Shown: one piece after another, positions 2,337-37,180 of the stretch
How the letters are laid out: every line of letters starts with the position of its first letter
How positions within the stretch are numbered: position 1 is the first letter of the stretch
Sequence record: NC_047754.1
Length of the DNA stretch: 64,000 nucleotides
Strand: one strand, 5' to 3'
From: Escherichia phage phiAPCEc03
Translations under genes and position numbers: made by a program
Notes under the pieces: generated by a model
The model's database searches: none
The model's input: the letters and a program-made list of their open reading frames with translations, nothing else
What the model was told of the DNA's origin: nothing

Positions 2337-2361
2337 AATTAATTTAAATAGGAAATAAAAT

Positions 2362-2601: not shown

Positions 2602-2606
2602 AACAA

Positions 2607-2684: not shown

Positions 2685-2691
2685 AATAATC

Positions 2692-2767: not shown

Positions 2768-2783
2768 ACTTTAAGGGAACACT

Positions 2784-3192: not shown

Positions 3193-3200
3193 CGGGTTCT

Positions 3201-3287: not shown

Positions 3288-3301
3288 ATTTAAGGACTAT
3301 T

Positions 3302-3469
3302 ATGTTTAAACTGTTAGTAGTTATCTGGTATAGTCAATCAAATAGAGCGAATACCTCCCACGTTATAGACTTTAATACTAAAAATGAAGCTGAAAAAGCA
3401 TATGCTAATTTAATAGAACGCAATAAAGAATCTCGTAGTATAGTTTATGAAGTGACTAAACTTTATTAA
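3302..3469 (+). CDS. hypothetical protein
   Basis: ORF MFKLLVVIWY with AAGGA RBS; upstream part of the listed ORF overlaps the tRNA. Confidence 0.45.
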   Translation: MFKLLVVIWYSQSNRANTSHVIDFNTKNEAEKAYANLIERNKESRSIVYEVTKLY

Positions 3470-3477
3470 AAATTCAT

Positions 3478-3530
3478 TTGCTTTCTCTCTTATATTCTTG
3501 TTATAATATTTATATAAATTAATGAGAGGG
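3478..3530 (+). promoter_or_regulatory. T5-type early sigma70 promoter
   Basis: -35 TTGCTT, 18-bp spacer, -10 TATAAT, then conserved TATAAATTAATGAGAGGG box before the ATG at 3538. Confidence 0.6.
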
Positions 3531-3537
3531 AAACCAA

Positions 3538-3831
3538 ATGAAACGTTATCTTTCTGTTGTGTTCCAAACTGGTGGTCAACGCTATACCTATGAATTTCCT
3601 AGCTCTTGGAAGATCAAAGAAGGTGATCAAGTTGTTGTGTTAACACCGCGTGATGGGTACAAGGTAGTAACGGTTAAGCAAGTCTTCACAAAAGATTATG
3701 AACCGTCTAAGTCTATTAACTATAAGATGATTCATGGTGTAGTTCGTCAAGTACCACGAGCGGAAGTCGAAATCAAAGTAGATAAAGATGGTAAACTTAA
3801 ATATACCTCTTGCTTAGACGAGTTGCTATAA
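3538..3831 (+). CDS. hypothetical protein
   Basis: 97-aa ORF downstream of the promoter. Confidence 0.6.
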   Translation: MKRYLSVVFQTGGQRYTYEFPSSWKIKEGDQVVVLTPRDGYKVVTVKQVFTKDYEPSKSINYKMIHGVVRQVPRAEVEIKVDKDGKLKYTSCLDELL

Positions 3832-4037
3832 TGAGGATTACTTTCACAGAAAAGATCATGAGTAACGGTGTTATGATCATTACCGCATGGGATGGTAATC
3901 AGTGGTGTAGTGTTTCAGGTATTAAGCCTGAAGAACAAACACTAGAAAATATCTCAAAGATTAAGCGAAGAATGGCAGAACGTGCACGACTTCCAGGTGC
4001 ACCTAGAAATGGCAAACGTTCTGCTGTAAAATGTTAA
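3831..4037 (+). CDS. hypothetical protein
   Basis: ORF MRITFTEK; start overlaps the upstream stop (TAATG). Confidence 0.45.
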   Translation: MRITFTEKIMSNGVMIITAWDGNQWCSVSGIKPEEQTLENISKIKRRMAERARLPGAPRNGKRSAVKC

Positions 4038-4038
4038 T

Positions 4039-4115
4039 GCTTCGGTAGCTTAGCGATCTAAAGCACTCGGCTGATAACCGAGAGATCGGGGGTTTAAATC
4101 CCTCCCGGAGTACCA
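4039..4115 (+). tRNA. tRNA-Ile (anticodon GAU)
   Basis: Acceptor GCTTCGG/CCGGAGT with G-U pairs, perfect anticodon arm CTCGG-CTGATAA-CCGAG, T-arm GGGGG-TTTAAAT-CCCTC, CCA encoded. Confidence 0.8.
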
Positions 4116-4211
4116 AATTTAGGAATTAAGACTATGCGTCCAGGAAAGTTTAAAAAAGCTAATTGGTCTAAAGAGTATAAAGAATACTTACTTAGTCTAA
4201 TAAAACATAAT

Positions 4212-4287
4212 AGTTAGTTGGCAGAGTGGTTATGCACCTCCTTCATACGGAGCGACTACAGTGGTTCAAATCCACTACTAACTACCA
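4212..4287 (+). tRNA. tRNA-Met/Ile2-type (anticodon CAU)
   Basis: Acceptor AGTTAGT/ACTAACT, anticodon loop TTCATAC, T-arm AGTGG-TTCAAAT-CCACT, CCA encoded. Confidence 0.7.
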
Positions 4288-9046: not shown

Positions 9047-9798
9047 TGTCAGTATTAGTAGGTTTACATGGTGAAGCTGGTTCGGGAAAAGATACCGTTG
9101 CAAAATTAATTATCGATTGGTGTAATGACACGTATCCAACGTGTTTATCACGTCGTTATAGTTTTGCTAAGCCCGTTTATGAACTTGCATCCGTAATCCT
9201 CGGTGTAACTCCAGAGTTTCTAGGAGAGCGCAGAGGAAAAGAGATTGACCAATGGTTTACGGTCACACAATCTCAATTGGAGCGAGCCAGAGATGTGTGG
9301 TTTAAGTACGGTATCGATAAGTTTGAAGACTTCTCGTACGTTTGGCCTATTTTTGAGGAAAAATATCTTAATCCTCAACAACTTATCTCAGAGAATAAAG
9401 AAGACGGACTTTATAGTTTATTTATTTCTCCGAGAAAAATGTTACAGCTCGTAGGGACAGAGCTAGGAAGGCAGCTGGTGCATGAACGCATTTGGCTCAT
9501 AATTCTGGAGCAATCCATCGCTAAAGACGACCCAGATGTCGCCGTAATAACAGATGTTAGATTCCCCAATGAAGGAGAGTTACTCAGAGAAACAAACCAT
9601 TTAGATATGGATTCTTTGATAGTAAATGTAGTACCCGCTGAGCAGAAGTTCACTATTAAATCAGATCATCCATCTGAAAGTGGTATTCCTGCAAAATATA
9701 TTACTCACGAATTAGTTAATAAATTCGATGGTATCAATAACCTTAAACTAGAAGTTTATAACTTCTGTGACTTAGAGCTAGAACCACTAGTTGGATAA
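9046..9798 (+). CDS. dnk: deoxynucleoside monophosphate kinase
   Basis: P-loop GEAGSGKDT as in T4-type dNMP kinases; 250 aa matches the size I recall for T5 dNMP kinase. Confidence 0.65.
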   Translation: MSVLVGLHGEAGSGKDTVAKLIIDWCNDTYPTCLSRRYSFAKPVYELASVILGVTPEFLGERRGKEIDQWFTVTQSQLERARDVWFKYGIDKFEDFSYVWPIFEEKYLNPQQLISENKEDGLYSLFISPRKMLQLVGTELGRQLVHERIWLIILEQSIAKDDPDVAVITDVRFPNEGELLRETNHLDMDSLIVNVVPAEQKFTIKSDHPSESGIPAKYITHELVNKFDGINNLKLEVYNFCDLELEPLVG

Positions 9799-9810
9799 TC
9801 AAGGATCGCT

Positions 9811-10392
9811 ATGACTAATAAAAAAGAAGAAAAGACTAACCTGTTTCACTCCATTCGCCAATCTAACGAGTATACCTTTTTCTTTGATGAAGAACTCGGT
9901 CCGCCGGATGAATACCGTGATTTAGCAATGGTACTTATGCAGGCAAATGAGGACGATGAAATTAATCTGATGATTAATGGTCCGGGTGGTTATGTTGATA
10001 CTGCTGCACAGTTATCTAACTTAATTGCTAATTGCCGTGGAACAGTTATAGGGCATCTGATTGGTCCTAGTGCTTCTGCTTACTGCACAATTTTCCTATC
10101 TTGTCATGGATGGGTAGTACATCCACATGCTACGCTAATGGGACACACGTTCTCTGGCGGGTTCTGTGAGAAGGGTCAAGAAATTAAGAAAGCCTATGAA
10201 TCTTACAACAAGTTCGTAGAAGATATGATGCTAGATGTCTACTATCCATTCTTCTCAATAGATGAAATAGACGAGATGGTAAAAGACAACAAAAATATCT
10301 ATCTAGATAGCAAGGAAATCCATAAGCGTATTGAAATCTTGGCAAAATATCGATCTGAGCAATATAATAAAGCCCAGTTACCTCAATTCTAG
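9811..10392 (+). CDS. ClpP-like serine peptidase
   Basis: INGPGG motif, Ser in GPSASAY and His in GHTFSGG spaced as in ClpP. Confidence 0.5.
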   Translation: MTNKKEEKTNLFHSIRQSNEYTFFFDEELGPPDEYRDLAMVLMQANEDDEINLMINGPGGYVDTAAQLSNLIANCRGTVIGHLIGPSASAYCTIFLSCHGWVVHPHATLMGHTFSGGFCEKGQEIKKAYESYNKFVEDMMLDVYYPFFSIDEIDEMVKDNKNIYLDSKEIHKRIEILAKYRSEQYNKAQLPQF

Positions 10393-10419
10393 GAGCACAA
10401 CGAAGAGTAAGTAGTTTTA

Positions 10420-10452
10420 AGCCAGGGTTTAACGACCCTGGCTTTTCTTTTA
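10420..10452 (+). terminator. rho-independent terminator
   Basis: Hairpin AGCCAGGG...CCCTGGCT plus T-tract. Confidence 0.65.
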
Positions 10453-10513
10453 TCTAAAATTCTTCTTGACAACGACAAAATTTTATGCTCCAGAAGTGAT
10501 CTTTAAAAACACA

Positions 10514-10550
10514 TTGTAATTTTCCTCCAAAATTAGTATAATGGTACTGG
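10514..10550 (+). promoter_or_regulatory. sigma70-type promoter
   Basis: -35 TTGTAA, 17-bp spacer, -10 TATAAT; upstream TTGACA also present. Confidence 0.5.
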
Positions 10551-10566
10551 TTAGAGGAGGTTACAA

Positions 10567-11223
10567 TTGGAAAAGTTCTTACAATTATTAACGGTACTGC
10601 TCCAAGAAGCGAAAGATCCAGCATCGCTTCTTAAACGTCTGCTAACTATCTTAGTTGCTGTCATTATTTTCTTATTTGTTAGTAATACTAGCGAGGTGAT
10701 GTCATTCTTAAAGACTTTCTCCACGTCTGCGGTCCTACAGGATGTTCAAACTCAAAGGATAGATAACTTTCCTAATGTAGCTAGAGAAAAGAGCATGGTG
10801 CTTTTCTCCCAAACGGGTGCGGATGCTGTTTTTGTCGTCAAGTATAAACCCGATGCCGTTAATGATTATTCTAACATTATTGCATGGGAAAGCAATGCGC
10901 AATTAGATAGGGCTGACTTGGCTGATAAAGCGGTAAATAAAACGTCTGAGCTATTTAGACGTCACTTAGACGGCTTCAACTACGCATCGGATTTAAGTGT
11001 AAAAGTAAATAAATACATGGGGTTAAATATACCTGCGTTTAAGAACGTTACTTTTAATTACATATACACTTGTCCGTATTTCAATCTAAACAATATCTAT
11101 GCTGGATATATTGGTATTGCTTGGAAAGATAATCCTGTAGATGCAGCCAATTCTGAGAAATTTAACGAGTATTTAACAAAGCTCTGTTCCCCACAACAGA
11201 GATCTTTAGGTAGATCAATATGA
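10567..11223 (+). CDS. putative holin (TTG start)
   Basis: AGGAGG RBS; one hydrophobic transmembrane segment; immediately upstream of and overlapping the endolysin gene. Confidence 0.4.
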   Translation: MEKFLQLLTVLLQEAKDPASLLKRLLTILVAVIIFLFVSNTSEVMSFLKTFSTSAVLQDVQTQRIDNFPNVAREKSMVLFSQTGADAVFVVKYKPDAVNDYSNIIAWESNAQLDRADLADKAVNKTSELFRRHLDGFNYASDLSVKVNKYMGLNIPAFKNVTFNYIYTCPYFNLNNIYAGYIGIAWKDNPVDAANSEKFNEYLTKLCSPQQRSLGRSI

Positions 11224-20265: not shown

Positions 20266-20825
20266 TGACTTTATATGCACAACAATCTATTCAAGTAGTA
20301 CCAGAGCATGAACTGAATACATGGGATTATAGCTTTAAAGATTTAACTGCTACTGTACAATTCAAATCTATGAAGCTAACCTTTGCACACACTAGTATTA
20401 AAGCATGTAAAGATCTTGAAGGTAAGCTCGAAGATGCTCGTAAGATTTTTGGCACGGCTCGCATCCCAGCTGATAATCTAATTAACGCATTAATCGATGC
20501 AGGGTACAAACTTGTGAAGACTGAGGTAAATCGTCCCAGTACCCCAGTGACTATTAGAGATCCCTGGCAATCAGGGACAATCTCAATGCTGAATAACTCC
20601 GATAAAAGATTAATGTCGGATATGCACAATGTTCCTTGTGGGGGTGTGATACGTAGTACGCAGTCATATAAGTTTGGGGAAGATTACGGCCCTTCTGTAC
20701 AGCTGAAACATACTCAAGAAGCTTTTGAATCTGATATGCGAAGCGTAGCACCTGCGGATGCTGGAGCTTTTAATAAGTCTGTTTATACTATTCCTATGAA
20801 CAATCCTGTAAGAGCGGAAGTCTAG
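20265..20825 (+). CDS. hypothetical protein
   Basis: 186-aa ORF. Confidence 0.55.
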   Translation: MTLYAQQSIQVVPEHELNTWDYSFKDLTATVQFKSMKLTFAHTSIKACKDLEGKLEDARKIFGTARIPADNLINALIDAGYKLVKTEVNRPSTPVTIRDPWQSGTISMLNNSDKRLMSDMHNVPCGGVIRSTQSYKFGEDYGPSVQLKHTQEAFESDMRSVAPADAGAFNKSVYTIPMNNPVRAEV

Positions 20826-20960: not shown

Positions 20961-21845
20961 ATGTATAACTTTAAAGATAAACTAAGACAAAATGCTGGCA
21001 AAACAAAACCTAAAGAGAACAATAATGTTCCTAATGCCAAAGTATTACCATTTCCAGAACTATCTCAAGAAGAAAAAGATAAGTTAGCATTTATGTTTGA
21101 TGCCCTTCTAGGGCTAAATGGACGTTTATACTCCTCACTCAATATTAATGAGAAACGTCTAGTAGAGATGTTCTGTAAGCGTTATCAAGTTACTTCAAAG
21201 GGTAATTCTTATAAAGAAGGTGAGAAAGCATTTACAGTCTTAAAGATTAGCGCATATGCACATCGTTTCTTAGTTTATGGGTTACAGATGGAATACTTCA
21301 CCATCCCATCATTTAGCTCTTTCCATATCTTTGAAGATGAACGAATGAATATTGATGATCTCTATGGGGATACGTACAAATACTCAGGAAGTCCATTCCA
21401 TGATGCATTAAGGAGCTACCCAACTAACTACTTACCAGTTAGGGCATCACAAGGTAAAGCTAGCATCTTCGCTGTTTACTCAGGATCTAAAGCATCGGAT
21501 CTAGAAACTTATATATTTAAAGAGCGTAAATCTGTACTTCCAGATGAAGCATTGTATAATAATCCATTGCTTCCAGAAAAAGAACCAGAGAAGATTGATG
21601 TAACCCCACCAATCCCATCTGATTCCCAGTATTTAATTTATGAGAAACAAGTTAAGTTATCCCTAGAAATTGGGTTAGTTACACCGCTTGCTGCAGCATT
21701 CATCAATAGGTATCTAGAAATTCCTGACGAGTTCCACACACGTTATAATACGAATATTCAGATAACGGATGAACTAATAGCTATTGCAAAAAGTACGCCT
21801 ACAGATACTGAGGCGTATCAAAAAGCATACCAAGAGTTACTATAA
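20961..21845 (+). CDS. hypothetical protein
   Basis: 294-aa ORF with GGAGA RBS; last gene before the repeat-rich noncoding region. Confidence 0.6.
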   Translation: MYNFKDKLRQNAGKTKPKENNNVPNAKVLPFPELSQEEKDKLAFMFDALLGLNGRLYSSLNINEKRLVEMFCKRYQVTSKGNSYKEGEKAFTVLKISAYAHRFLVYGLQMEYFTIPSFSSFHIFEDERMNIDDLYGDTYKYSGSPFHDALRSYPTNYLPVRASQGKASIFAVYSGSKASDLETYIFKERKSVLPDEALYNNPLLPEKEPEKIDVTPPIPSDSQYLIYEKQVKLSLEIGLVTPLAAAFINRYLEIPDEFHTRYNTNIQITDELIAIAKSTPTDTEAYQKAYQELL

Positions 21846-22382
21846 TATTCTGCAAGTCTCGGTGCACAATACCTGTACCGAGACAATAATACAAACTCTC
21901 GTTGACAGATAGCTAAATGTATGTTATCATAACTCTATGAGTTAATAGAATTAACCATTTAGAGTTGCCACACAGAAGGTGTGGTGGTTCAGTAATTTAA
22001 AATTACTAACTTGTAGCGGAGGATACGGAGCGACAGGACAAGTTAATAAGTAATTTAATATAAATTGCTAGAAACATCACGAGACCTTCTGGCGGGGGCA
22101 AAGCTCTATATGAGAACCCTGGGGGATCTTATATTTAAAATAAAAGTAAAACTTTTGACCACATAATTTACATTCAAGATGATACACCTGTTGCCGCTCA
22201 TCTGCTAGGATGGCACAACACTTTCTTCTAGACTCCTAAGTTTTTATGAAAACTCTAGTCAACTCAGGCGGTTTTCATTGTTCCTAGAAACTCTAGCAAT
22301 AGGCGGTTAATACAGGGCGGTTATAGGGAGGGCGGTTATTTCTAGGAGACATTTTTTGAAAACACATTTCCAGAAATTACTA

Positions 22383-22981
22383 TCGGATTTGCACATTGTG
22401 TTTCTAGAAATTTATGGTCGGATTTGCACAAACGCCTAAGTTTTCAGGAACTCTTACTCTCCTGAAAATGGCAGCATTATTTCGGGCCGAAGGCCCGTGA
22501 TTGCCTGAGTTTTTAGAGTCACAATAATTTTCACTTGTCAAGCTATTTTGCCCCATTTAGCTAATAAAATTTTACTTTATCTGCACTTATCTCAAATTAA
22601 CCCAAATCTTCTCAACTCTTCCCCAAAATCCCCGCAAATCAGGTGCTCCGCACCAAACATGCACCTCTCCCACAGTTCCCCCAAGTTTCTCTCGCTCTCT
22701 CAACTTCTCCCCAAACTCATACAATCACACACCCTCCAATCGAAGTCACAAAAATCTTGTCGGATTCGCACAAATAAACCCCTGTCGGATTTGCACATAT
22801 TCTAGCTAATTCCACAGGATTGATGCGCAGCATCGGATTGCTGTAGTTTTTAGGAAAATTCATTGTCGGATTTGCACACTATAAAAATTTTTCGGGTCGG
22901 ATTTGCACACTACTAAAAATTGTCGGATTCGCACATACACGCCCACGCGTAACACCCGTGGAGCAATGTCGGATTTGCACA
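22383..22981 (+). repeat. iteron-like array: 8 direct copies of 13-bp TCGGATTYGCACA
   Basis: Copies start at 22383, 22428, 22759, 22785, 22866, 22897, 22923 and 22969, all in the same orientation within a noncoding region. Confidence 0.85.
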
Positions 22982-23033
22982 AAAGCGCAGGGCAATTGCC
23001 CTGCCCGCCTGAATGCAAATACAAATGAGAATC

Positions 23034-23165
23034 ATTCGCATTTAAAAAGCGGAATGAGAATGATAATGATTCGCATTTAAAAAGTGAAATGAAAATTATT
23101 CAGGAAGTGAAACGATTCTCATTTAAAAAGTGGAATGCAAATGATAGTGATTCGCATTTAAGAAC
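23034..23165 (+). repeat. 4 direct copies of ATTCGCATTTAAAAAG-containing unit
   Basis: Units at about 23034, 23069, 23115 and 23150, period about 35-45 bp. Confidence 0.75.
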
Positions 23166-23191
23166 GGAAGTGAGAAACACTGTTATTTAAG

Positions 23192-23273
23192 TTATCCACA
23201 GACTTATTAACCGCATAATTTGACTTGACAGAATCCTAGCCATTTTGAGGCGTTATTAACAGACTTATCCACA
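23192..23273 (+). promoter_or_regulatory. DnaA-box-like 9-mers (TTATCCACA), two copies
   Basis: Exact TTATCCACA at 23192-23200 and 23265-23273. Confidence 0.55.
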
Positions 23274-23442
23274 GCTTATCCTACTGTATAAATATACAGT
23301 ATTCCTACGCAGTGAATAATTCTAATATAGTCCTAAAACGTCCTAGATCGCATTCTAACGCGTTTAATTTTGGTGGGGATACTAAAACAAGGGGTTATCC
23401 GGTTGCAGGCGTGAAAAACGGGGATCTGCTCCCCGCTTGTTG

Positions 23443-23637
23443 TCAGTCCGGTAATTGATGCGTGATCTTCTCCTCCTCCCCGTAGGAATCGACCAAATGT
23501 TGATAGTAACCATCGGCATCATAAATAACGCTATCATACTCGCCACGCTCGACCGCTTGCCGGTTTTCCGGCGTATCGGGCACGTAAAAAACATCAACCA
23601 TTGTACTGGTTTTAGTCACAATAATTTTATTGCTCAT
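23443..23637 (-). CDS. hypothetical small protein (pre-early-like block)
   Basis: 64-aa ORF with AGGGG RBS-like sequence. Confidence 0.5.
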   Translation of the reverse strand: MSNKIIVTKTSTMVDVFYVPDTPENRQAVERGEYDSVIYDADGYYQHLVDSYGEEEKITHQLPD

Positions 23638-23662
23638 AATAACCCCTAGTAAATATATAATT

Positions 23663-24007
23663 TCATTGTGCTACCTTTCGAAAAGCTGTTTCAATACTTT
23701 CCGCAGTTGATTGAATATACGCGCCTTTCATGATCAGGCGCTCAGTGCATATCTTACGGAAAATATTAATAAAATCATCTTCATTTTCTGCAATTAATGC
23801 TTCACCCATAACCTGAACGTCGCAAGATGCAAAGGTCAAAAATTGAAACGCTAGTTCACGGGCAACGACCGCATTGATTTTATAATGCGCCTTGCCCTCA
23901 TAAATATTAATAACGCCCTTGTAAGCTGGGGAAAGCTGGTTTAAATAGTTTGCTAGTAATGCCGGACGGCAATTAGCAACAAAGCGGTTGCCCTCATAAA
24001 TAACCAT
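23663..24007 (-). CDS. hypothetical protein
   Basis: ORF with GGGAGG RBS before internal ATG at 24007 (MVIYEGNRF); the listed ORF extends to 24022. Confidence 0.5.
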   Translation of the reverse strand: MVIYEGNRFVANCRPALLANYLNQLSPAYKGVINIYEGKAHYKINAVVARELAFQFLTFASCDVQVMGEALIAENEDDFINIFRKICTERLIMKGAYIQSTAESIETAFRKVAQ

Positions 24008-24130
24008 TTTATAACCTCCCAATCAGGTAACCAGATAAAAGCATAAAAATCCCCAGTAAAAGGGGATCATTCTTAAATAAGGTGGCGGTAAAACCGCCAA
24101 CCATTGCAAGGAGAATAACAATAGCGCTTT

Positions 24131-24343
24131 TCATAGTACCCCACGAAACGCAGCGTAAAAGGTGGCAAAGTGTTTAACTGTTTCAGCGATCACGTTGCCG
24201 CGCTTGTCAAATTTTTTCTCGGTAACACGAAAGGCATTTTTGTTACGTGCTACATATTCGATTTTACAATCTTCCCGCTCGAACGTGTTAACATCCACCA
24301 GCTTAAAGCCTTTCGAACGTGCAAGAGAAACGTTGCGGATCAT
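24131..24343 (-). CDS. hypothetical basic protein
   Basis: 70-aa ORF. Confidence 0.5.
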   Translation of the reverse strand: MIRNVSLARSKGFKLVDVNTFEREDCKIEYVARNKNAFRVTEKKFDKRGNVIAETVKHFATFYAAFRGVL

Positions 24344-24345
24344 TT

Positions 24346-24501
24346 TTATTCTCCTTTACTAGTCATGCAGCCCAGCAGATAAGAAAATACAGCGATACCC
24401 GCGCCAATAATAACCGCGTGAACGCCGAAAGCTATGGCAAAAAGTGATAAAATAGCGCCCAAGATACCTGCCAGAATAGCTCGAAAAATAACCATTTTCA
24501 T
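24346..24501 (-). CDS. small hydrophobic membrane peptide (51 aa)
   Basis: ORF MKMVIFRAILAGILGAILSLFAIAFGVHAVIIGAGIAVF, GGAG RBS; below the ORF-track cutoff. Confidence 0.4.
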   Translation of the reverse strand: MKMVIFRAILAGILGAILSLFAIAFGVHAVIIGAGIAVFSYLLGCMTSKGE

Positions 24502-24541
24502 TCTCCTAGTTAGCGGGGCGAAAATAACGCCCCGTTATTAC

Positions 24542-24772
24542 TTACATTAAAACAATTTTAGCGGCTTGTTTTTTGGTGCAATGTTCCGCCTTCAGGGTAT
24601 CCAGCAAAAAGCCAGCCGTTTGCTGGTCAATCTTATCAGCGTTATACAATTCTTGGATGGTGTTATAAGTTTTAGCAATGCCATATTCTTGCACCATTTC
24701 GTGAATAATAACGCGGTTAGATACCCAGCCTTGAGCGGTGAACAGATGACTAGCAGAAGAATAAGCAACCAT
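24542..24772 (-). CDS. hypothetical protein
   Basis: GGAGG RBS before internal ATG (MVAYSSASH); the listed ORF extends to 24829. Confidence 0.5.
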   Translation of the reverse strand: MVAYSSASHLFTAQGWVSNRVIIHEMVQEYGIAKTYNTIQELYNADKIDQQTAGFLLDTLKAEHCTKKQAAKIVLM

Positions 24773-24889
24773 TTTAAGCCTCCAATTTTTGGGAAAATTT
24801 TCAACCGTCCTCGAACGGTGTAAGGGCATTATAACAAAAAAGGCCGCCGATTATGGCGACCTTTACAAAACTTTACATTAGATTATTTA

Positions 24890-25123
24890 TTACTCGCTTT
24901 CGGTGCTAGTGGTAAAAGTAGAAATATCAATACCTTTCACCATTTCATCAATCATCTCAGCAATGTTAAAAGATTGCACCATTTCTAACATAGCCGCTTC
25001 CATAGCTGCACCTGCTACCGCTTTCGCCTTTTGGTTACTCGGGGCGTACTGGTCAACCGCTACACTCAGCAGGTTAGCGATCACTACCCGACCAATCGGC
25101 GTATCAATATAGCCTTTAATCAT
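24890..25123 (-). CDS. hypothetical protein
   Basis: 77-aa ORF; start overlaps the upstream stop (ATGA), suggesting coupling. Confidence 0.5.
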   Translation of the reverse strand: MIKGYIDTPIGRVVIANLLSVAVDQYAPSNQKAKAVAGAAMEAAMLEMVQSFNIAEMIDEMVKGIDISTFTTSTESE

Positions 25124-25866
25124 GAAGGGCGCTTTTTAGCCGCTACTTTCGTAATTTGAGTCAGTGCAATTTTACCCGCTTCCAGTTTTGCAGCGTTTAC
25201 AACAGCGGATTTATTAGCGGCAACGATGTTAGCAATCTTGGTCATAGTATTTTTTCCTTTATTTTCAGTAGTTTGAGCGTTAGAATTTACAGCATGTTTT
25301 TCCGTGTTGTCAATAGGCTGATCTTCATCTTTCCAGAAAGAAAAACCAGCACTTTCGATGTCGCCATCATATACATATGGGTATAGCTCCCGTGGTAGCA
25401 AAAAATTGCCATCGTCATCAAAAGCCATTACAGCCGCCAGACGATACCCGTCACCAATTGACCGATTCCAGCCAACTGATAAATAACGCCAAAATGAATC
25501 GAGAAAATTTTCAACGTCATAAAGATCATTGGGGTTGGCCCCATAGTTTTCTATTGAAAAAACTTCTAAGCCCGCCCCAGTATCATAGGCTTTTACTATA
25601 CTACCTTTTACAATTATGAAATCGGTATCCGGCCCCCTGCTAGTAAGCAGGTGATTATCTCGATTATATAAAACAAGCGTTGCCCCTTGCTTATACAGTT
25701 GCAAAAAACTACTCATATCATAGGCATCGAAATCATCAAAAAAATTTTGGTGAATATCTTCGGACTTGTTAACAAAGTGTTTAATGCTGGTTGTTCTGCT
25801 ACCATCCAGCAGGTTACGCAGCGCACCTTTTAAGACGGTTGCGTTATCTGGTTTATATAGCCTCAT
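25120..25866 (-). CDS. hypothetical protein with Ala/Lys-rich C-terminal tail
   Basis: 248-aa ORF, first gene of the minus-strand block. Confidence 0.6.
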   Translation of the reverse strand: MRLYKPDNATVLKGALRNLLDGSRTTSIKHFVNKSEDIHQNFFDDFDAYDMSSFLQLYKQGATLVLYNRDNHLLTSRGPDTDFIIVKGSIVKAYDTGAGLEVFSIENYGANPNDLYDVENFLDSFWRYLSVGWNRSIGDGYRLAAVMAFDDDGNFLLPRELYPYVYDGDIESAGFSFWKDEDQPIDNTEKHAVNSNAQTTENKGKNTMTKIANIVAANKSAVVNAAKLEAGKIALTQITKVAAKKRPS

Positions 25867-26158
25867 TTGTTCGGCCCCCTCGTTAATCGGTGAGTGAATG
25901 ATAAGGGTAATTTTCTAGCATAGGCAAAGATTATTTTACTTTTTTATTTTCCTTGCCTAACGCCTATTTTTATGCTAACCGCGCAGCGGTGTACTAAAGA
26001 GCAAAACACGGCGAAGCCACCAGGCCGTCGCATTGAGGCTTTACTTTAATATTACCTTGTAGCGTTCAGCTCGTTAGAAAGCGTTTTAGGCCGCTTAAAA
26101 TTGATTGCAGTCGTTAACACTACCTTTTTACCCTGTGTATTTATACAGTAGAATAACC

Positions 26159-26540
26159 TGTGGATAAGTCTGTGCAAAAGTCCCTATATCGCCGCCTATC
26201 GTGTCAAATTATTTTGTGCTGTGGATAACGTTGTGGATAACTTAAATGATAGTGGTTCTCACTTAGGCCGATAGTTTCTTATAGTTATTATTTCTTATAA
26301 TTATTATTTCTCATTAATTTATAAGTATATTATATATCATGAAATAGTTAGTTGGCTAATGAGATTTTCCGTGATTAATAGTCTGCTAATAATTTAAGCC
26401 GTTACAATCCACCAGCATGATTATCATCCTAGCAATTATTAGTCTGCTATCTTTCCGATGCATACTAACAGATAAAAGTCAATTAATTTATTTTATAAAA
26501 TAAGTAGTTATCCACTGGAAAATAGAAGTCAAGTGGATAA
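26159..26540 (+). promoter_or_regulatory. DnaA-box-like 9-mer cluster, mostly in reverse orientation
   Basis: TGTGGATAA at 26159-26167, 26220-26228 and 26232-26240; TTATCCACT at 26507-26515 and AGTGGATAA at 26531-26539. Confidence 0.55.
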
Positions 26541-26987
26541 CTAGGAAAATTTCATTTTTGCTTCTGGGGATAAGTTATCAACAAGGCTAGAATGCGCCTA
26601 AAACGCCCTAGAACGCGATGAAGTTTTTAGCCATCTCATCATAAAGGGATAAGCCGTTTATCGCTGTCACGAGCTTTTTAGGTTTTGTCAAGTAGGGCAA
26701 AGTAAATATAAATGAAAAAATTACTTGCCTATTTGCTATGTTTTGTGGTATTCGCGCGCCCGTTTCTTTCAATTTTAGGCCGTCGCCGCACGCCGTCCGG
26801 TGGATCGTGTCTTTACGTTTCTTTACAAAAATAAGGTTGCGCCATTTTCGGGAATCCCCTATTATTTATCTCGTAGGGCGGCAATGACGAACTACACGGC
26901 GGGAAGTTTACCACCACGCTCTTTAAAAATTGGGTACATCTTAAAGCCTATCGGCGGTAAACTTATTCATTATAAGGAATCGACGAT

Positions 26988-27191
26988 ATGAAACAAACGC
27001 TTTTGATCACTGGCAAGCCTATTAAGGCACTAGATATCAAAACAAAAAACTTGTTGACAGTAGCACAAAGATCAGTAAAATATAGATTCACGCAGTACAA
27101 GAAAGGTCGCCAGCAAGGTTTAGAAATGATCTGGCGAAATATTATGATTGACTTGAAAGAAAATCATAAAAAACTGCAAAAAACCGCTTGA
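26988..27191 (+). CDS. hypothetical basic protein
   Basis: 67-aa ORF with AAGGA RBS. Confidence 0.4.
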   Translation: MKQTLLITGKPIKALDIKTKNLLTVAQRSVKYRFTQYKKGRQQGLEMIWRNIMIDLKENHKKLQKTA

Positions 27192-27216
27192 CAACCTAGC
27201 CGATAGGTTTTAAGAT
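27188..27216 (+). promoter_or_regulatory. sigma70-like promoter
   Basis: -35 TTGACA, 17-bp spacer, -10 TAAGAT. Confidence 0.4.
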
Positions 27217-27420
27217 GTACCCAGTTCGATAAGAGCGATAACTTGATAAAATTTGACGGTCGGTGCTTACCATAATGCATCCCGCCCCCCTAACTGGGAT
27301 ATAGCGGCCTACGTGGAGTTCTTTAAATCGATTATACTGGCGAGCGGATTGTTACTTATTACCTGCTACTTTCTAGCAGGTAATGCGGAACAATCCACCA
27401 AATAACTCGGAGTTTATATT

Positions 27421-27672
27421 ATGCAAAACGTTATTACCGCGCCTAAAATTGGTCAATCCGTCTTCATTCCTTTCGTTACTAAAACGGATGAATTAACCGG
27501 AAAGGCTGAACGCATTAAAGGTGCGGCGCTTATGCCGTTCGATACAATCGACGCGGTATATGCTGAAAATGAACGTAGTAACAACGGCAAACCTGTTTTT
27601 AACGTTCGCGTTAAATCCGGCGACGTTGTAAAGGTTGTTCAACGTAACGAAAAATGGGAAGCTGTTCTGTAA
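27421..27672 (+). CDS. hypothetical protein
   Basis: 83-aa ORF with GGAG RBS. Confidence 0.6.
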   Translation: MQNVITAPKIGQSVFIPFVTKTDELTGKAERIKGAALMPFDTIDAVYAENERSNNGKPVFNVRVKSGDVVKVVQRNEKWEAVL

Positions 27673-27770
27673 TTTAGTGTTAACTTTATATCCCCCTTAT
27701 TTCAGGGGGATATAACGATTAACATTAAGTTAATCTAATCCCTTAAATTAAACTAATAGGAGTTTATATC

Positions 27771-28178
27771 ATGACTAACGTTAAAACCGCAAAATTCGCA
27801 TGGAATGAAGAAAACACTCAGAAAGCTGTTTCCATGTATCAGCAGTTAATTAATGAAAACGGTTTAGATTTCGCAAATAGAGACGGTTTAAAAGAGATTG
27901 CAAAAGCAGTTGGCGCGGCTTCCCCTGTATCCGTTCGCTCAAAATTGACCAGTGCAAAAGCCTATCAAAAAAGCGATAAGCCGCGTAAAGTTGGTGGCGG
28001 TAGCTCTGTGCGTAAAGCTCACTATGTGCGCGTTATCGCTAAACATGCTATTGATTCCGGCATTATCAAAGACGCCGACGATCTGGCAAGTCTGGAAAGT
28101 GCAAAACTTGAAACGCTGGACGCAGTAGCGCAACTGTTAGGCGTTGCCGATGAAGTAAAACAAGCCGCAGGCGAATAA
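27771..28178 (+). CDS. A2: A2-like pre-early protein (tentative)
   Basis: 135-aa ORF next to the A1-like gene; size matches what I recall for T5 A2; assignment rests on size and synteny only. Confidence 0.4.
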   Translation: MTNVKTAKFAWNEENTQKAVSMYQQLINENGLDFANRDGLKEIAKAVGAASPVSVRSKLTSAKAYQKSDKPRKVGGGSSVRKAHYVRVIAKHAIDSGIIKDADDLASLESAKLETLDAVAQLLGVADEVKQAAGE

Positions 28179-28269
28179 TAGTTATACCTTGCCCCCTTTT
28201 AGTGAGGGGGCAATAATATAACTGTTTAGCGATAGTTATTTTCTTCCCTTAAATCAGGAGTTTTAAAAA

Positions 28270-28467
28270 ATGATTTTCTTTCCTACTGAATCATTAATTC
28301 TAGGCTTGTTTATTATGGCGGCCTCATTATTATTTGCTTATTTTCAAAATGATTTAGATTCATATTATTTTAAACGTAAATCTAAGTTAGCAAAACGTTT
28401 GGGCTTGCTTTGTTTTATCGCTGCCGTTGCTTGTGGTGTTAGTTCTAGCCTAATGCCTTTAAATTAA
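28270..28467 (+). CDS. small membrane protein
   Basis: 65-aa ORF with two hydrophobic segments. Confidence 0.5.
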   Translation: MIFFPTESLILGLFIMAASLLFAYFQNDLDSYYFKRKSKLAKRLGLLCFIAAVACGVSSSLMPLN

Positions 28468-28557
28468 TGTTGCAAATTATAACGCCTATTATTCGAGGCG
28501 TTATATTTGGCAATATTGCCGTTATTAATCTAATCCCTTTAATGGAGTTTTATTACT

Positions 28558-30228
28558 ATGATTATTTCCGCAGAAAAACAAACCGTTATCCTGAAAATGG
28601 CCGCTGACTTTAATTTCTATGGTAAACGTCTGCGCGCTACTAAACTGGAAGTCTGCGACGATATATCAAAAGCGGTCTACGATACAACGAAGCATTCAAC
28701 CGCTATCTGCGACTGGCTGGAAGCAAATAAACCAGCTAAACCGAAAGCGGCAAAAGTAGCAAAAGCCATTAAAAACGATGAGCGCCCAGAAGCGGCGGGG
28801 ATTGTTTCTAGTACGGTTGAGCAATGGGAAGTAAAACAGGGTAAACGCTTTATTATTACGTCGATTCAGAATAATACTTTCCCACATAAAAACTTTTTAG
28901 CAAGTCTGGAAAAATTCGCTGAATATATCGGTGCTGATTTGCTTGTTTCTAAGTATATTTATAATAAAAACGGCTTCCAGAATGGAGAAGGTGCAGACGG
29001 TATCAAATACGATCCCGCATTTGATAAATATATTTGCAGCAAAAACGTGTTTTTAAATAACCGCCGTTTTGCTTTCATGGCTGAAATTAATGTTTTGCCT
29101 ACCGCAGACTATCCGCTTTCAGGATTTGCAGAAACTGCAACGGCTTTAAATATTGAAGGGCTGGCAATTGGTCACGCTAAAATTACCGCTGAAAGCGTGC
29201 CAGCTTTAAAAGGTGAAGTAGTGCGCCGTATGTATTCAACCGGAACGGCAACGCTCAAAAACTACATTCAGCAGAAAGCAGGACAAAAAGCCGAGGCGCT
29301 GCATAACTTCGGTGCGCTTATAGTTGAGTTCGACGACGACGGGGAATTTTTTGTTCGCCAGCTTGAAACAATGGACGAAAGCGGGGTGTTTTATGATCTG
29401 AACGTTTGCGCTACTCCTGCCGGATGCTATGAGACATCGGGGCATGTTTTAGGCTTGCAGTATGGCGATATTCACGCCGAAAAATTAGATGAGGAGTGCG
29501 CCGCCGCATCTTGGGGGCATGGTGATACTTATGGGCTAGTAGATATTCTTAAACCAAAATATCAGTTTGTGCATGACGTTCACGATTTTACATCCCGCAA
29601 TCATCATAACCGCGCATCCGGTGTATTCCTAGCTAAACAATACGCCGCCGGACGTGATAAAGTTCTGGATGATCTTATCGATACGGGGCGCGTGCTGGAA
29701 TCAATGGAACGTGATTTTAGTCAAACAATCATTGTTGAATCTAATCACGATTTGGCGCTATCCCGTTGGCTTGATGATCGTAATGCTAACATCAAAGACG
29801 ATCCAGCAAACGCCGAGTTATATCACCGCCTGAATGCTGCAATTTACGCGGCAATCGGTGAACACGACGAAACGTTTAACGTGCTAGATTATGCGTTGCG
29901 CAAGGTTGCAGGTTGTGAATTTAACGCCATTTTCCTGACCACTGATCAATCTTTCAAGATTGCAGGCATTGAATGCGGCGTACACGGTCACAATGGCATT
30001 AACGGCAGTCGTGGCAATCCTAAACAATTTAAAAAATTGGGCAAGTTAAACACGGGGCATACCCATACCGCCAGCATTTATGGCGGCGTATATACCGCTG
30101 GCGTTGCTGGTAGTCTGGATATGGGTTACAACGTTGGCGCGTCAAGCTGGACGCAAACGCATTTAATTACCTATGCAAATGGTCAACGCACTTTGATTGA
30201 CTTTAAAAACGGTAAATTCTTTGCATAA
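28558..30228 (+). CDS. A1: A1-like pre-early protein, metallophosphoesterase-family nuclease
   Basis: 556 aa; calcineurin-like motifs GDIH, SNHD, GVHGHNG and GHTHT in canonical order; size matches T5 A1. Confidence 0.7.
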   Translation: MIISAEKQTVILKMAADFNFYGKRLRATKLEVCDDISKAVYDTTKHSTAICDWLEANKPAKPKAAKVAKAIKNDERPEAAGIVSSTVEQWEVKQGKRFIITSIQNNTFPHKNFLASLEKFAEYIGADLLVSKYIYNKNGFQNGEGADGIKYDPAFDKYICSKNVFLNNRRFAFMAEINVLPTADYPLSGFAETATALNIEGLAIGHAKITAESVPALKGEVVRRMYSTGTATLKNYIQQKAGQKAEALHNFGALIVEFDDDGEFFVRQLETMDESGVFYDLNVCATPAGCYETSGHVLGLQYGDIHAEKLDEECAAASWGHGDTYGLVDILKPKYQFVHDVHDFTSRNHHNRASGVFLAKQYAAGRDKVLDDLIDTGRVLESMERDFSQTIIVESNHDLALSRWLDDRNANIKDDPANAELYHRLNAAIYAAIGEHDETFNVLDYALRKVAGCEFNAIFLTTDQSFKIAGIECGVHGHNGINGSRGNPKQFKKLGKLNTGHTHTASIYGGVYTAGVAGSLDMGYNVGASSWTQTHLITYANGQRTLIDFKNGKFFA

Positions 30229-30284
30229 TTAAATTATTCCCCTAGCGGCTTGAAATATAGTCGCTATTACAGGAGTCACAAAAA

Positions 30285-30542
30285 ATGAAAGTTACATTAC
30301 CCAAAACATTGGACGAAAAAGTATTCATTTCACCGGATGAAATGGAATCCGATAAAGTTTACAGCTTCGGGCCTATCCTAGCCGCCAAAACTAATACTGA
30401 TGGTATTATTTCCGTCGATTCCCGTGATAATGATGTTGTTCCTTTTGATGACTATGGCGCTTTTTATGAATGGCTAAGTGATAATAATCTACCCGTAAAC
30501 GGTGAATTAACGCCGTACCAAATGCAGATTATTATCAAATAA
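30285..30542 (+). CDS. hypothetical acidic protein
   Basis: 85-aa ORF with AGGAG RBS. Confidence 0.55.
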   Translation: MKVTLPKTLDEKVFISPDEMESDKVYSFGPILAAKTNTDGIISVDSRDNDVVPFDDYGAFYEWLSDNNLPVNGELTPYQMQIIIK

Positions 30543-30580
30543 ATTAAATTCCTTATTAAACTAACTGGAGTTTTATAAAT

Positions 30581-30973
30581 ATGAAAAAGCAAAATATTCC
30601 ATTTGATCGCGCTCAGTCTTCCATTGTTCTGGTTTATTCTAATGGCGAACGTTACCACGTCGAGGCGGGGCACGTTATTGATGATCTATTAGATTTCAAT
30701 GACGCTTTACAGGTTACAACATTCGCATATACGCAGGGCAAACTAACCAGCCATATTAAAGCAAAAGGCGTTTATGTTGATACGGTGAAGCAAGAAACGA
30801 TTATCATCGACGCCGTAAAATCCGGCCTTGCCTTTGCAGTTGTCGCGCCTTGCCCCGCTTGCCTTGATGATCAATTGATTTCTGCAAAAGTATATACTTG
30901 TGCTGGTATTCGTTCCAGCGTATCAGGTGAGGATGTTAGTTTTATTGCCGATGCGTTGGCTTATGGTCTTTAA
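30581..30973 (+). CDS. hypothetical protein
   Basis: 130-aa ORF with GGAG RBS. Confidence 0.6.
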   Translation: MKKQNIPFDRAQSSIVLVYSNGERYHVEAGHVIDDLLDFNDALQVTTFAYTQGKLTSHIKAKGVYVDTVKQETIIIDAVKSGLAFAVVAPCPACLDDQLISAKVYTCAGIRSSVSGEDVSFIADALAYGL

Positions 30974-31053
30974 TAGTTAATTTATTATTACCCGCTTATA
31001 AATAGCGGGTAATGCTGAAATAACTAAATCCCTTTAATGGAGAACGTAACAAA

Positions 31054-31788
31054 ATGAATCAAGTTAAAACGAATATTACCCGTAATTTCCCGCATATTTC
31101 CCGCGTCATGATTTGGGATCTGGACGGCACTATCATTAATTCTTTCCATCGTGTAGCGCTTTGCTTTGATAGTGAGGGCAATTTAGATTTAAATAAGTAT
31201 AAAAATGAAGCCTGCAAACATCATTTAATAATGCAAGATACTTTATTGCCATTAGTTGAATACATGCGCCAGTGCATGAATGACGCAAATACTTTAAACA
31301 TTATTTGCACCGCTCGACTAATGAGCAAGTCGGACTATTATTATTTGCGCAAACAAGGCTTGCGCGGTCGTGGTAATAGTAATATCCGCGTGTTTTCCCG
31401 TGATACACTGCATAAATATTTTGAGGCTGATAAAGTTAGCGAAATATACCACAGCAAGGACGCAGTATATAAATCTTATTATTTTGAATTATTCAAACAA
31501 CTATACCCAAACGCTGATTTTACAATGATTGACGATCATAAAGGCGTACTATCAGCGGCGGCATCATACGGATTTAAAACGCTGGACGCGCAAGCCGTTA
31601 ACGATATTCTATCAATCGGCGTGACATTGATAGGTGAAACCTTTATTGATGAATCCCTCGATGATGATAATGATTATCAATTCCTAGCTGACCGTTTAAA
31701 ATTATGCTGGGAAGGTATGACCGAGGAAGAACGCGCAGAATATAGTTGCAGCCCGCAACAATATATTGAGAAATTAAAAGTTGCGTAA
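31054..31788 (+). CDS. dmp: HAD-family 5-prime-deoxyribonucleotidase
   Basis: 244 aa with HAD motif I (WDLDGTI) near the N-terminus; size and position match T5 dmp. Confidence 0.6.
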   Translation: MNQVKTNITRNFPHISRVMIWDLDGTIINSFHRVALCFDSEGNLDLNKYKNEACKHHLIMQDTLLPLVEYMRQCMNDANTLNIICTARLMSKSDYYYLRKQGLRGRGNSNIRVFSRDTLHKYFEADKVSEIYHSKDAVYKSYYFELFKQLYPNADFTMIDDHKGVLSAAASYGFKTLDAQAVNDILSIGVTLIGETFIDESLDDDNDYQFLADRLKLCWEGMTEEERAEYSCSPQQYIEKLKVA

Positions 31789-31963
31789 TAATTAAAGTTG
31801 AAATAGTTTCATCCTGCAATTAAAATGGTTGCAGGATGAAACAGTTACCCTGCTAATAGTAACGGGGGTGGCGGTTAGCAGACTAAGTATTTCCGCCGGA
31901 GGCAGTGAGCACATCTTCATGTGTAATCTTAGGAAATTTGGCAAAAAGGTTAATTAGCGCTAA

Positions 31964-35381: not shown

Positions 35382-35864
35382 ATGGCAAATGATGTATTAG
35401 TACCAGATCTTATGTCCCCTGAAGGGATGGATGTGATTGAAGCTTATTTACAGTGCGGCAGCGATGTGCCTTCTGCCGCACGTAGTCTTGGAATGTCCGA
35501 AATTGCTTTCCGAGATATTATGAATCGTAGTGAAGTTAAGAACTACTTAAATGATATTTTTATGGAAAGTGGATTCCGTAACAGGGATCGTTTGTTTGGT
35601 GTTCTAGATGAAGTTATTAAACGTAAACTAGAGGAACTGGAAGAAACTGGCATGGGTTCTGACCAGGATATTATGGATATTCTCTGGAAAGCACACAAGA
35701 TGAAGATGGAAGAGATGAAAATGATGGTAGAGTTAGAAAAAGCTAAAGCTGCCGTTCGAGCTCCTGCTAATCAGACCAATATCCAGAATAACATTATTGC
35801 TGGAGCTGGGGATCAAAACTACATGGACTTAATTACTTCCCTGGCTACTGGAGGTAAGAAATAA
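35382..35864 (+). CDS. putative terminase small subunit
   Basis: 160 aa, immediately upstream of and abutting the large terminase gene. Confidence 0.4.
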
Positions 35865-37180
35865 TGGAAGTATCAAGACCCTACGTTAACACAGTAGATG
35901 TTATTGATTTCGGAATAGACAAACGTTTCTTTCGTTTACCTGTTTCAGGAATACTAGCACAAGAAGGTATTACACCTAATGGTCCTCAAATAGCGATTAT
36001 CAATGCGCTAGAAGACCCTAGACATCGTTTTGTAACGGCGTGTGTATCGCGCCGTGTGGGCAAGTCCTTTATAGCATATACACTTGGATTCCTAAAATTG
36101 CTGGAACCCAATGTGAAGGTACTAGTAGTTGCTCCTAACTACTCACTGGCCAACATCGGATGGTCTCAGATTCGTGGTCTTATTAAGAAGTATGGCCTAC
36201 AAACTGAACGTGAGAACGCTAAAGATAAAGAGATTGAGTTAGCTAATGGTTCTCTGTTTAAACTAGCTTCCGCGGCTCAGGCTGACTCCGCAGTTGGACG
36301 TTCATATGATTTTATCATTTTCGATGAGGCGGCAATTTCCGATGTGGGTGGTGATGCCTTTAGGGTTCAGTTACGTCCTACTCTAGATAAACCTAATTCT
36401 AAAGCTCTATTTATTTCCACCCCTCGTGGAGGTAACTGGTTTAAAGAGTTTTACGCCTATGGATTTGATGATACGTTACCTAACTGGGTGTCTATTCATG
36501 GTACATACCGTGATAACCCTCGTGCTGACCTGAATGACATTGAGGAAGCACGTCGTACAGTTAGTAAAAACTACTTCCGCCAGGAATACGAGGCCGACTT
36601 CTCTGTATTCGAAGGCCAGATCTTTGATACCTTTAATGCTATCGATCATGTTAAAGACCTCAAAGGTATGCGTCACTTCTTTAAAGATGATGAAGCATTC
36701 GAAACATTGCTTGGTATTGACGTTGGTTATCGTGATCCTACAGCAGTTCTTACTATTAAGTACCACTATGATACAGATACCTACTATGTATTAGAAGAGT
36801 ACCAGCAGGCAGAGAAAACTACAGCGCAACATGCTGCGTATATTCAGCACTGTATAGATCGTTATAACGTAGATCGTATCTTCGTTGACTCCGCGGCTGC
36901 CCAGTTCCGTCAGGACTTAGCTTATGAACATGAAATTGCATCAGCTCCAGCTAAAAAATCTGTCCTAGACGGTCTAGCATGCTTGCAAGCGCTATTCCAG
37001 CAAGGCAAGATTATTGTAGATGCTTCATGTTCCTCATTAATCCATGCGTTGCAGAACTATAAATGGGACTTCCAAGAAGGTGAAGAAAAATTATCACGTG
37101 AAAAACCACGTCATGATGCTAACTCTCACCTCTGTGATGCGCTGCGCTATGGAATTTACTCTATTTCCCGTGGTAAATAA
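35864..37180 (+). CDS. terminase large subunit
   Basis: 438 aa; Walker A VSRRVGKS and Walker B DFIIFDEAA. Confidence 0.8.
   Translation: MEVSRPYVNTVDVIDFGIDKRFFRLPVSGILAQEGITPNGPQIAIINALEDPRHRFVTACVSRRVGKSFIAYTLGFLKLLEPNVKVLVVAPNYSLANIGWSQIRGLIKKYGLQTERENAKDKEIELANGSLFKLASAAQADSAVGRSYDFIIFDEAAISDVGGDAFRVQLRPTLDKPNSKALFISTPRGGNWFKEFYAYGFDDTLPNWVSIHGTYRDNPRADLNDIEEARRTVSKNYFRQEYEADFSVFEGQIFDTFNAIDHVKDLKGMRHFFKDDEAFETLLGIDVGYRDPTAVLTIKYHYDTDTYYVLEEYQQAEKTTAQHAAYIQHCIDRYNVDRIFVDSAAAQFRQDLAYEHEIASAPAKKSVLDGLACLQALFQQGKIIVDASCSSLIHALQNYKWDFQEGEEKLSREKPRHDANSHLCDALRYGIYSISRGK

Follow-up and report, generated by a model that had tools for sequence, protein, structure and literature searches.

The question raised by this locus is what a series of short direct repeats does in a 1.5-kb non-coding stretch of the genome of Escherichia phage phiAPCEc03, and whether it is a new element. 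The window, that is, the whole stretch of DNA that was analysed, comprises 64,000 nt of sequence record NC_047754.1. Regarding the repeats themselves, a pattern search of the whole window with TCGGATTYGCACA gave eight matches with zero mismatches, all on the + strand, starting at 22383, 22418, 22760, 22785, 22866, 22897, 22923 and 22969; when up to two mismatches were allowed, the window contained 12 matches against 1.92 expected, a count reached in none of 100 dinucleotide-preserving shuffles. Seven of the eight copies are preceded by G, which extends the unit to GTCGGATT. An earlier note on this DNA had described eight copies of a 13-mer in the same orientation at 22383-22981, and the exact matches together with the shuffles bear this out; its extent of about 600 bp also stands. 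Within this extent the copies are grouped in two clusters, 22383-22430 and 22760-22981, instead of being evenly spread; a gap of about 330-340 bp lies between the clusters, and the start-to-start spacings are 35, 342, 25, 81, 31, 26 and 46. The same note took the region to be non-coding, and this agrees with the reading frames: no ORF longer than 85 aa occurs in 21846-23380 (1.5 kb), and the longest one there (22548-22805) is broken in frame by a 2-base indel relative to T5 (alignment columns 867-868), so that the array region has no credible coding capacity.

As for its identity, sequence comparison shows that the array is the annotated and named "direct repeat D" (DRD) set of phage T5. The region shares 89-91% identity with the opposite strand of T5 9275-10931, and a pairwise alignment with T5 gave 93% identity with all landmarks in order. 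TCGGATTYGCACA reads on the strand complementary to the T5 record + strand, and both the alignment and the motif scan place the eight copies in register with T5 DRD copies 8 to 1. The elements, with the coordinates of the window, are as follows.

20616-20628, + strand: degenerate copy TCGGATATGCACA, one mismatch, inside an ORF; homologous to T5 DRD copy 10
22383-22395, + strand: DRD copy 8, outer cluster, outside the terminal repeat; exact match, aligned to T5 copy 8
22418-22430, + strand: DRD copy 7, outer cluster; starts 98 nt before the presumed repeat boundary
22590-22745, + strand: tract rich in pyrimidines that fills the inter-cluster gap and contains two 21-nt repeats, T5 "direct repeat A" copies 2 and 3
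22760-22772, + strand: DRD copy 6, inner cluster, inside the terminal repeat; exact match, aligned to T5
22785-22797, + strand: DRD copy 5; exact match, aligned to T5
22866-22878, + strand: DRD copy 4; exact match, aligned to T5
22897-22909, + strand: DRD copy 3; exact match, aligned to T5
22923-22935, + strand: DRD copy 2; exact match, aligned to T5
22969-22981, + strand: DRD copy 1; exact match, aligned to T5, with the nick motif directly after it
22985-22988, + strand: GCGC, homologous to T5 major nick 1 (7.9%) according to the T5 annotation

The spacings are 35/342/25/81/31/26/46 here and 35/344/25/81/31/26/46 in T5. T5 has nine non-coding copies and one in ORF019, and phiAPCEc03 has eight plus the degenerate one; T5 copy 9 falls in a 46-bp stretch that is absent from phiAPCEc03 owing to an indel. 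On one side of the array is T5.018, with which the early genes of the left arm end, and on the other are nick 1, direct repeat C and the DnaA-box inverted repeats; as in T5, the array spans the end of the left terminal repeat. The kilobase that holds the pyrimidine-rich tract has a GC skew of -0.135. Elsewhere in the window, two adjacent DRD-like copies, TCGGATTTGCAC and TAGGATTTGCAC, start at 63525 and 63540 (63525-63552) inside a coiled-coil ORF that is the coding region of D13 (SbcC-like), and correspond to T5 78936-78962.

The array is thus not new, being orthologous copy for copy to DRD 1-8 of AY587007 and of Davison 2020; the sources for DRD are Heusterspreute 1987, Wang 2005 (GenBank AY587007, where "direct repeat D copies 1-10" are annotated) and the preprint Davison 2020 (10.1101/866236). 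The preprint lists DRD, describes a region that overruns the terminal repeat by 270 bp, and gives DRD no function; the stop signal that it prefers consists of the DnaA-box inverted repeats and the DRE repeats (10.1101/866236). In AY543070 the T5 counterpart carries the end of the left terminal repeat, the "injection stop signal" and the major nick. The earlier note had recognised the DNA as T5-like, and the 89-91% identity confirms it; it had also placed the array in the first-step-transfer or injection-stop region near the terminal-repeat boundary, and this is where the T5 annotations put it, overlapping the stop signal, the left-repeat end and major nick 1. What it missed is that the array had already been named (AY587007) and that two of the eight copies lie outside the terminal repeat. 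Its interpretation was sound but non-committal, for a feature already present in the literature and in GenBank.

Regarding the genome end, T5 position 5 corresponds to window position 31907, with the right-hand late region beyond it, which indicates that the window is a junction-type assembly with a collapsed repeat. The terminal repeat extends from about 22516 to 31911, and is followed by the receptor-binding protein, TerS and TerL. Its right-hand boundary is marked by two elements.

22481-22515, + strand: GC hairpin GGGCCGAAGGCCC with a T-run, ending at the presumed right terminal-repeat boundary, 22515/22516
22516-22545, + strand: first bases of the terminal repeat, GAGTCACAATAATTTTCACTTGTCAAGC, a conserved end-proximal sequence

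The boundary at the hairpin and T-run is assigned from its T5 homologue, the boundary at 10139. The same TTTTTA/GAGCCACA junction is the genome end in T5 (by Sanger sequencing) and in KpGranit and Slocum (by PhageTerm), that is, in three independent mappings, and by homology to it the right end of phiAPCEc03 should lie at 22515/22516. The sequence GAGCCACA...TTGTCAA is kept in T5, EscoHU1, phiR2-01, KpGranit and Slocum, while in My1 the TTGTCAA part alone is found. The full junction, a GC hairpin and T-run followed by GAGCCACA...TTGTCAA, is shared by three genera (positions 2213, 1615 and 2522 of the compared segments).

In every lineage with both clusters and a mapped end (nine phages of six lineages, several of whose deposited boundaries may copy that of T5 by homology and are not all independent), the boundary falls inside the inter-cluster gap. 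Its offsets, given as the outer copy and the inner copy relative to the boundary, are listed below.

T5: -98 / +246
EscoHU1: -98 / +246
MM-1: -98 / +244
phiR2-01: -132 / +280
KpGranit: -130 / +137
IME260: -110 / +157
Slocum: 124 / 259
Javier: -77 / +71
My1: boundary inside a 611-nt gap

Seven IMG/VR contigs with both repeats end 245-247 nt from DRD6, and the deposited ends of pork27 and saus176N, 36-38 nt before DRD6, are still within the gap. The PhageTerm boundaries of Seabear (1947), Kenya-K20 (1829) and Stubb (2398) are on the GCGC nick next to copy 1 or no more than about 30 nt away, not at the junction mapped in T5, KpGranit and Slocum; that of Stubb, the only annotated boundary in Novosibvirus, is exactly on GCGC, and the three are probably read-start artefacts induced by the nick. 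At the other end of the repeat, the pattern search of the window found no DRD near the left-end junction at 31911, and no sequence common to the cut sites at 22516 and 31911 was seen. Two further elements, both unannotated in T5, were observed in the surroundings: four copies of GGCGGTT within 71 bp (22267-22337), between a candidate RNA described below and DRD copy 8, and a single GGCGGTTA in the terminal repeat, about 35 nt from its left end (about 31870).

Outside the close relatives of T5, the 12-base core TCGGATTTGCAC is kept in six Demerecviridae lineages, in the same orientation and between flanks that cannot be aligned. It is exact or nearly exact in Tequintavirus/Epseptimavirus, Sugarlandvirus, Slocum, the My1-type phages, Vibrio Thalassavirus and a metagenomic T5-like contig; the carriers include the Sugarlandvirus phages KpGranit and IME260, Serratia phage Slocum, Yersinia phage phiR2-01, the Pectobacterium My1-type phages and Vibrio phage Javier. 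The last of these keeps the core with A2 and TerS proteins only 42-46% identical to those of phiAPCEc03 (42% for A2 in the Vibrio phages that have the core). The thirteenth base of the repeat is lineage-specific (A, T or C), and the spacings, almost fixed within Tequintavirus and Epseptimavirus, vary among lineages from about 15 to 81 nt within clusters; the metagenomic contig has seven copies of the core spaced by 14-31 nt, mostly 15 nt. Across 31 distinct Tequintavirus/Epseptimavirus segments the DRD columns are 97.8% conserved versus 86.3% for the other columns, a comparison in which copies 1-4 are biased by the choice of segments and copies 5 and 6 are not. The earlier note had offered the loss of the repeats in related phages as grounds for giving up its interpretation, and they are kept; within this comparison no non-coding element of the region is conserved more deeply than the DRD motif, DnaA and LexA boxes aside.

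Two lineages depart from this pattern. Vibrio phage D441 has the inner cluster only, modified to TAGRTTTCGCACA, and the Proteus phages of Novosibvirus have lost the array, with one or two degenerate copies left. Novosibvirus retains A1, A2, the nick motif, the DnaA boxes and the LexA boxes, and the array can therefore be separated from the other parts of the injection-stop module. In Proteus phage 2 (Novosibvirus; segment 4913-5100) the corresponding non-coding stretch has about ten copies of CCATTCTATTAYTC at 15-18 nt spacing, and they may be a replacement for the DRD array. As for a bacterial counterpart, 185,579 genomes were scanned for a pattern of two copies, and no host site family was recognised among the 14 hits; they consisted of coding repeats in tandem, a 22-bp tandem of no relation to DRD, and T5 sequence contaminating metagenome-assembled genomes. 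Short contigs binned as "Spirochaetia" and "Clostridia" (INTA.CYC isolates) were also seen to carry sequence of the T5-like injection-stop region, which is phage contamination. Rfam found no family in 21000-24500, its sole match being at chance level (E 0.5, 18.6 bits versus 33), and an informal comparison with consensus sites for CRP, IHF, NtrC, sigma-54, CytR, marbox and dif gave no convincing match to DRD.

The surroundings of the array hold other regulatory signals. A near-perfect LexA (SOS) box, TACTGTATAAATATACAGTA, with one mismatch to the 20-mer consensus and a chance expectation of 0.1 in the window, coincides with the T5 "palindrome D" (sites at 23282-23301 and 26131-26150), and a weaker LexA box lies beside each cluster of DnaA boxes. 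Boxes of the form CTGT-N8-ACAG are again found next to DnaA boxes in T5-like phages of Vibrio, of Proteus and of metagenomic origin (segment positions 502-525 and 572-595; 6337 and 9875 in Proteus phage 2; 6366, 9463, 10140 and about 1240 in others). LexA is absent from the text of Davison 2020, and a literature search for it found no relevant report.

A near-consensus sigma-70 promoter with an extended -10 (TTGACA-17-TATCAT) is present at window position 21902, and in the same place in 10 lineages; the ~150-230 nt downstream of it differ wholly even between close relatives. The transcripts fold far better than shuffled sequences, with z of -5.5 here and of -2.5 to -6.9 in eight of nine other lineages (KpGranit, -1.4), and a conserved motif of the GGGGGAnnTTATAnnTAAAATAAA type ends them in eight of 10 lineages. 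The 21902-22150 transcript, which has no Rfam entry, is a candidate non-coding RNA or RNA-primed initiation element, and the hairpin and T-run at 22481-22515 look like an intrinsic terminator for the 21902 transcripts, which would then stop exactly at the genome end. Fur boxes in direct repeat C were considered and rejected: the best site has 4-5 mismatches and is no better than in shuffles (6.35 expected). The sequence GATGATGATAATGATTATC at 31660-31684 is two mismatches from the Fur-box consensus, lies within the dmp coding region and is probably a coding coincidence. Finally, matches of the GGTTCGAATCC type at 763-4273, an off-target of a relaxed motif search, mark the T5 tRNA gene cluster.

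The earlier note regarded the array as a protein-binding platform whose binder cannot be named from the sequence, and this is supported, the array being a candidate platform. The data fit a compact protein that would read an asymmetric site of 12-13 bp as a monomer, or with one subunit per site, because the sites lie as close as 15 nt and their helical phases are scattered. The function tentatively preferred here is that of a docking platform that would mark the concatemer junction for end cutting and packaging. The outer cluster would stand just outside the terminal repeat and the inner cluster just inside it, with the right end of the virion DNA between them; a protein bound to both would organise the DNA so that terminase cuts at 22515/22516, and the shared orientation of the sites would give packaging into the repeat its polarity. 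The right end (by the T5 convention), inside the array, would be the one packaged first, since the left end enters the cell first and a last-in, first-out rule is taken to apply.

The concatemer-junction reading is favoured because the array flanks the cut on both sides even in deeply diverged lineages, can be separated from the injection genes and has a layout like that of cosB or pac. By homology, the array lies directly beside the genome-end cut, and the window encodes a candidate TerS (35382-35864; phrog_3802; homologue of T5.156) and the large terminase subunit (35864-37180). Several observations count against it, however. The putative recognition helix of TerS differs among lineages with an identical core (PVESVAAMLKK in Slocum, PVAEVEAQLKK in Javier, and a different one in T5), the array is absent at 31911, several boundaries may derive from that of T5 by homology, and in D441 the inner cluster stands alone.

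An injection-stop element, too, would be expected close to the repeat end, the first-step DNA and the repeat being of about equal length. A possible though doubtful alternative is built on the inner cluster, just distal to the first-step halt: A2 (27771-28178), with or without A1, would bind the repeats and restart transfer or, in a variant, a host or virion factor on the repeats would cause the pause. A2 held on the DNA at the point of cell entry would release the remaining genome or pull it in. In the T5 annotation the array lies within or adjoins the "injection stop signal", and DRD1 (9672) stands just right of the 7.9% shear point (about 9618 in T5 coordinates); Davison, however, favours the DnaA-box inverted repeats and the DRE repeats as the stop signal. 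A2 is an essential pre-early DNA-binding protein for second-step transfer whose site is not known, and its motif [VIL]RK[AE]HYVR is kept in all five array-carrying lineages and altered where the array is changed or lost, at equal overall divergence (VPKISYIR in D441, IRKAHVVF in Proteus). This co-variation, however, comes from two lineages, and when the state of the DRD motif was compared with TerS and A2 across six lineages the fractions of changed columns were about equal (19/49 and 13/30), which does not favour TerS either. Novosibvirus has both A1 and A2 and lacks the array, and an injection role accounts neither for the outer cluster nor for a genome end located in the gap. The presence or absence of A2, T5.108 or TerS was dismissed as a discriminator because each is present in the array-less Novosibvirus; T5.018 was dismissed because its homologues do not reach the Vibrio or Proteus phages. 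An unlikely alternative makes the repeats boxes for the initiator D2 (T5.108), which, with the promoter at 21902 and the DnaA boxes, would form an origin; forks would run into the terminal repeat and might duplicate it during concatemer maturation. D2 was proposed as an initiator, with no known site, by Wong et al. 2013, who named UL9 as its closest characterised relative. T5.108, encoded outside the window (segment 1546-4332), has N-terminal motifs like those of AEP primase-polymerases (AMDVDG and ASSSAG...H) followed by a UL9-like SF2 core, and exceeds the Pfam Herpes_ori_bp threshold (30.5 bits versus 20); UL9 is the closest solved structure to its whole-protein model (pLDDT 88.4), and its C-terminal domain alone gave a single-sequence model of too low confidence to be used (pLDDT 36.6). 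The C variant of DRD, ATTCGCAC, matches seven of the eight bases of HSV-1 UL9 box 1, GTTCGCAC (PMC12543377); however, most copies are the T variant (ATTTGCAC) with six of eight bases, and a seven-base match is weak evidence, given the many known sites with which the motif was compared. The layout is iteron-like with DnaA boxes 210-300 nt away, and the near-consensus promoter reads toward the array in 10 lineages. The term "iteron-like" of the earlier note holds for the repeat array itself, while an iteron of the origin type is one among several live readings. The copies, moreover, are all direct, whereas oriS boxes are inverted; RVKNL, the sequence-reading motif of UL9, is absent from T5.108; Novosibvirus has T5.108 without the array; and origins mapped by electron microscopy, as cited in the literature, are internal or central. 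A fuller form, in which DRD copies are HSV-related D2 boxes with the core TTYGCAC and, together with the promoter and the structured transcript 21902-22150, make up an origin outside the repeat whose forks copy the repeat, is decidedly improbable. If it were true, each packaged genome would receive both repeat copies through origin forks, and replication initiation, end formation and "injection stop" would be one module, shared in principle by tailed phages and herpesviruses.

Host proteins and the nicks give the remaining alternatives. In one of them, a very unlikely one, the DRD copies are weak DnaA boxes, and host DnaA bound at the strong boxes (23192 and 23265) would spread over them as an oligomer, an extension of Davison's membrane-anchoring model. 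The 3' nine bases of the repeat, ATTTGCACA, match eight of nine positions of the relaxed TT(A/T)TNCACA, one D441 copy is a full match (TTTTGCACA), TTYGCAC is the part of the repeat most conserved in the family, and true DnaA boxes are adjacent in all lineages. Position 1, however, is invariably A instead of T, so that no DRD copy is among the TTWTNCACA matches and the C variant has two mismatches; across the six lineages the conservation of the 5' TCGG(A), dispensable for DnaA, equals that of the 3' half; spacings of 15-81 nt with scattered helical phases contrast with the regular close packing of sites for DnaA oligomers; and the consensus boxes that coexist nearby are a clearly distinct motif. 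The probability is slighter still that DRD recruits or positions the phage nicking endonuclease for major nick 1, next to DRD1. GCGC follows the last copy by about 3-14 nt in all lineages examined (T5-like phages, Slocum, Proteus, Javier, D441 and the metagenomic contig), and the only other DRD-like pair (63525, 63540) is about 50 bp from the mapped 64.8% nick and precedes the annotated nick motif (63914) on the same strand by 362-377 nt. By contrast, the counterpart of the 18.5% nick region is free of DRD-like sequence, the two nick sites share an extended motif of their own, GCGC(A)GGGCAA, and 8-10 copies over 600 bp, some of them outside the repeat, exceed what one nick needs. Nickless T5 mutants are viable, which fits poorly with so strong a conservation.

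The importance of the concatemer-junction reading and its alternatives lies in two questions that date from the 1960s, namely how T5 injection halts and restarts, and how the 10-kb terminal repeats are made. Papers of 2020-2026 still call the injection-stop region unexplained, and a 2026 PNAS paper states that the mechanism of second-step transfer "still remains poorly understood". What is added here is the conservation of the 12-base core throughout the family, the position of the genome end between the two clusters, and the loss of the array in one genus. The comparison leads to a short list of candidate binders (TerS, A2, D2 and DnaA), and an unexplained repeat becomes a small set of testable hypotheses; the division into outer and inner clusters offers clean mutant designs to laboratories with T5 engineering tools.

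In conclusion, the array can be set beside several known systems. It agrees with T5 DRD (Repeat Region 3, the injection-stop-signal region) in sequence, strand, order and spacing, and in its neighbours (nick 1, palindrome J, direct repeat C, the DnaA-box inverted repeats and the left-terminal-repeat end), and differs from it in that two copies carry the swapped C/T variant. With origin iterons of plasmids and phages it shares repeats in one orientation and consensus DnaA boxes within 300 bp, but it has no adjacent initiator gene, its spacing is irregular with a gap that holds the genome end, and any origin activity is putative. The DRD C variant has TTCGCAC in common with the UL9 boxes of HSV-1 oriS, and the phage encodes a UL9-like helicase; unlike those boxes, DRD is direct instead of inverted and has a core of 12-13 bp with a conserved TCGG that UL9 boxes lack, and RVKNL is missing. 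Like SRL/SRR and phiOR of T7, the array abuts a terminal-repeat boundary and has a promoter outside it (21902-21930) that reads inward, although sequences, repeat length and polymerase are unrelated, and the likeness is one of layout only. As for the packaging sites, in lambda (cosB) and SPP1 (pacL-pacC-pacR) the small terminase recognises arrays of sites that adjoin or surround the cut. DRD differs from them in that T5 has direct terminal repeats of 9-10 kb with a second cut site that has no array, and in that T5 TerS is only a putative binder, with a helix that is not conserved across the lineages sharing the motif. Like the R sites of lambda cosB and like SPP1 pac, however, DRD consists of several short asymmetric sites on both sides of the position where the end is formed, and their common orientation could set the polarity of packaging.
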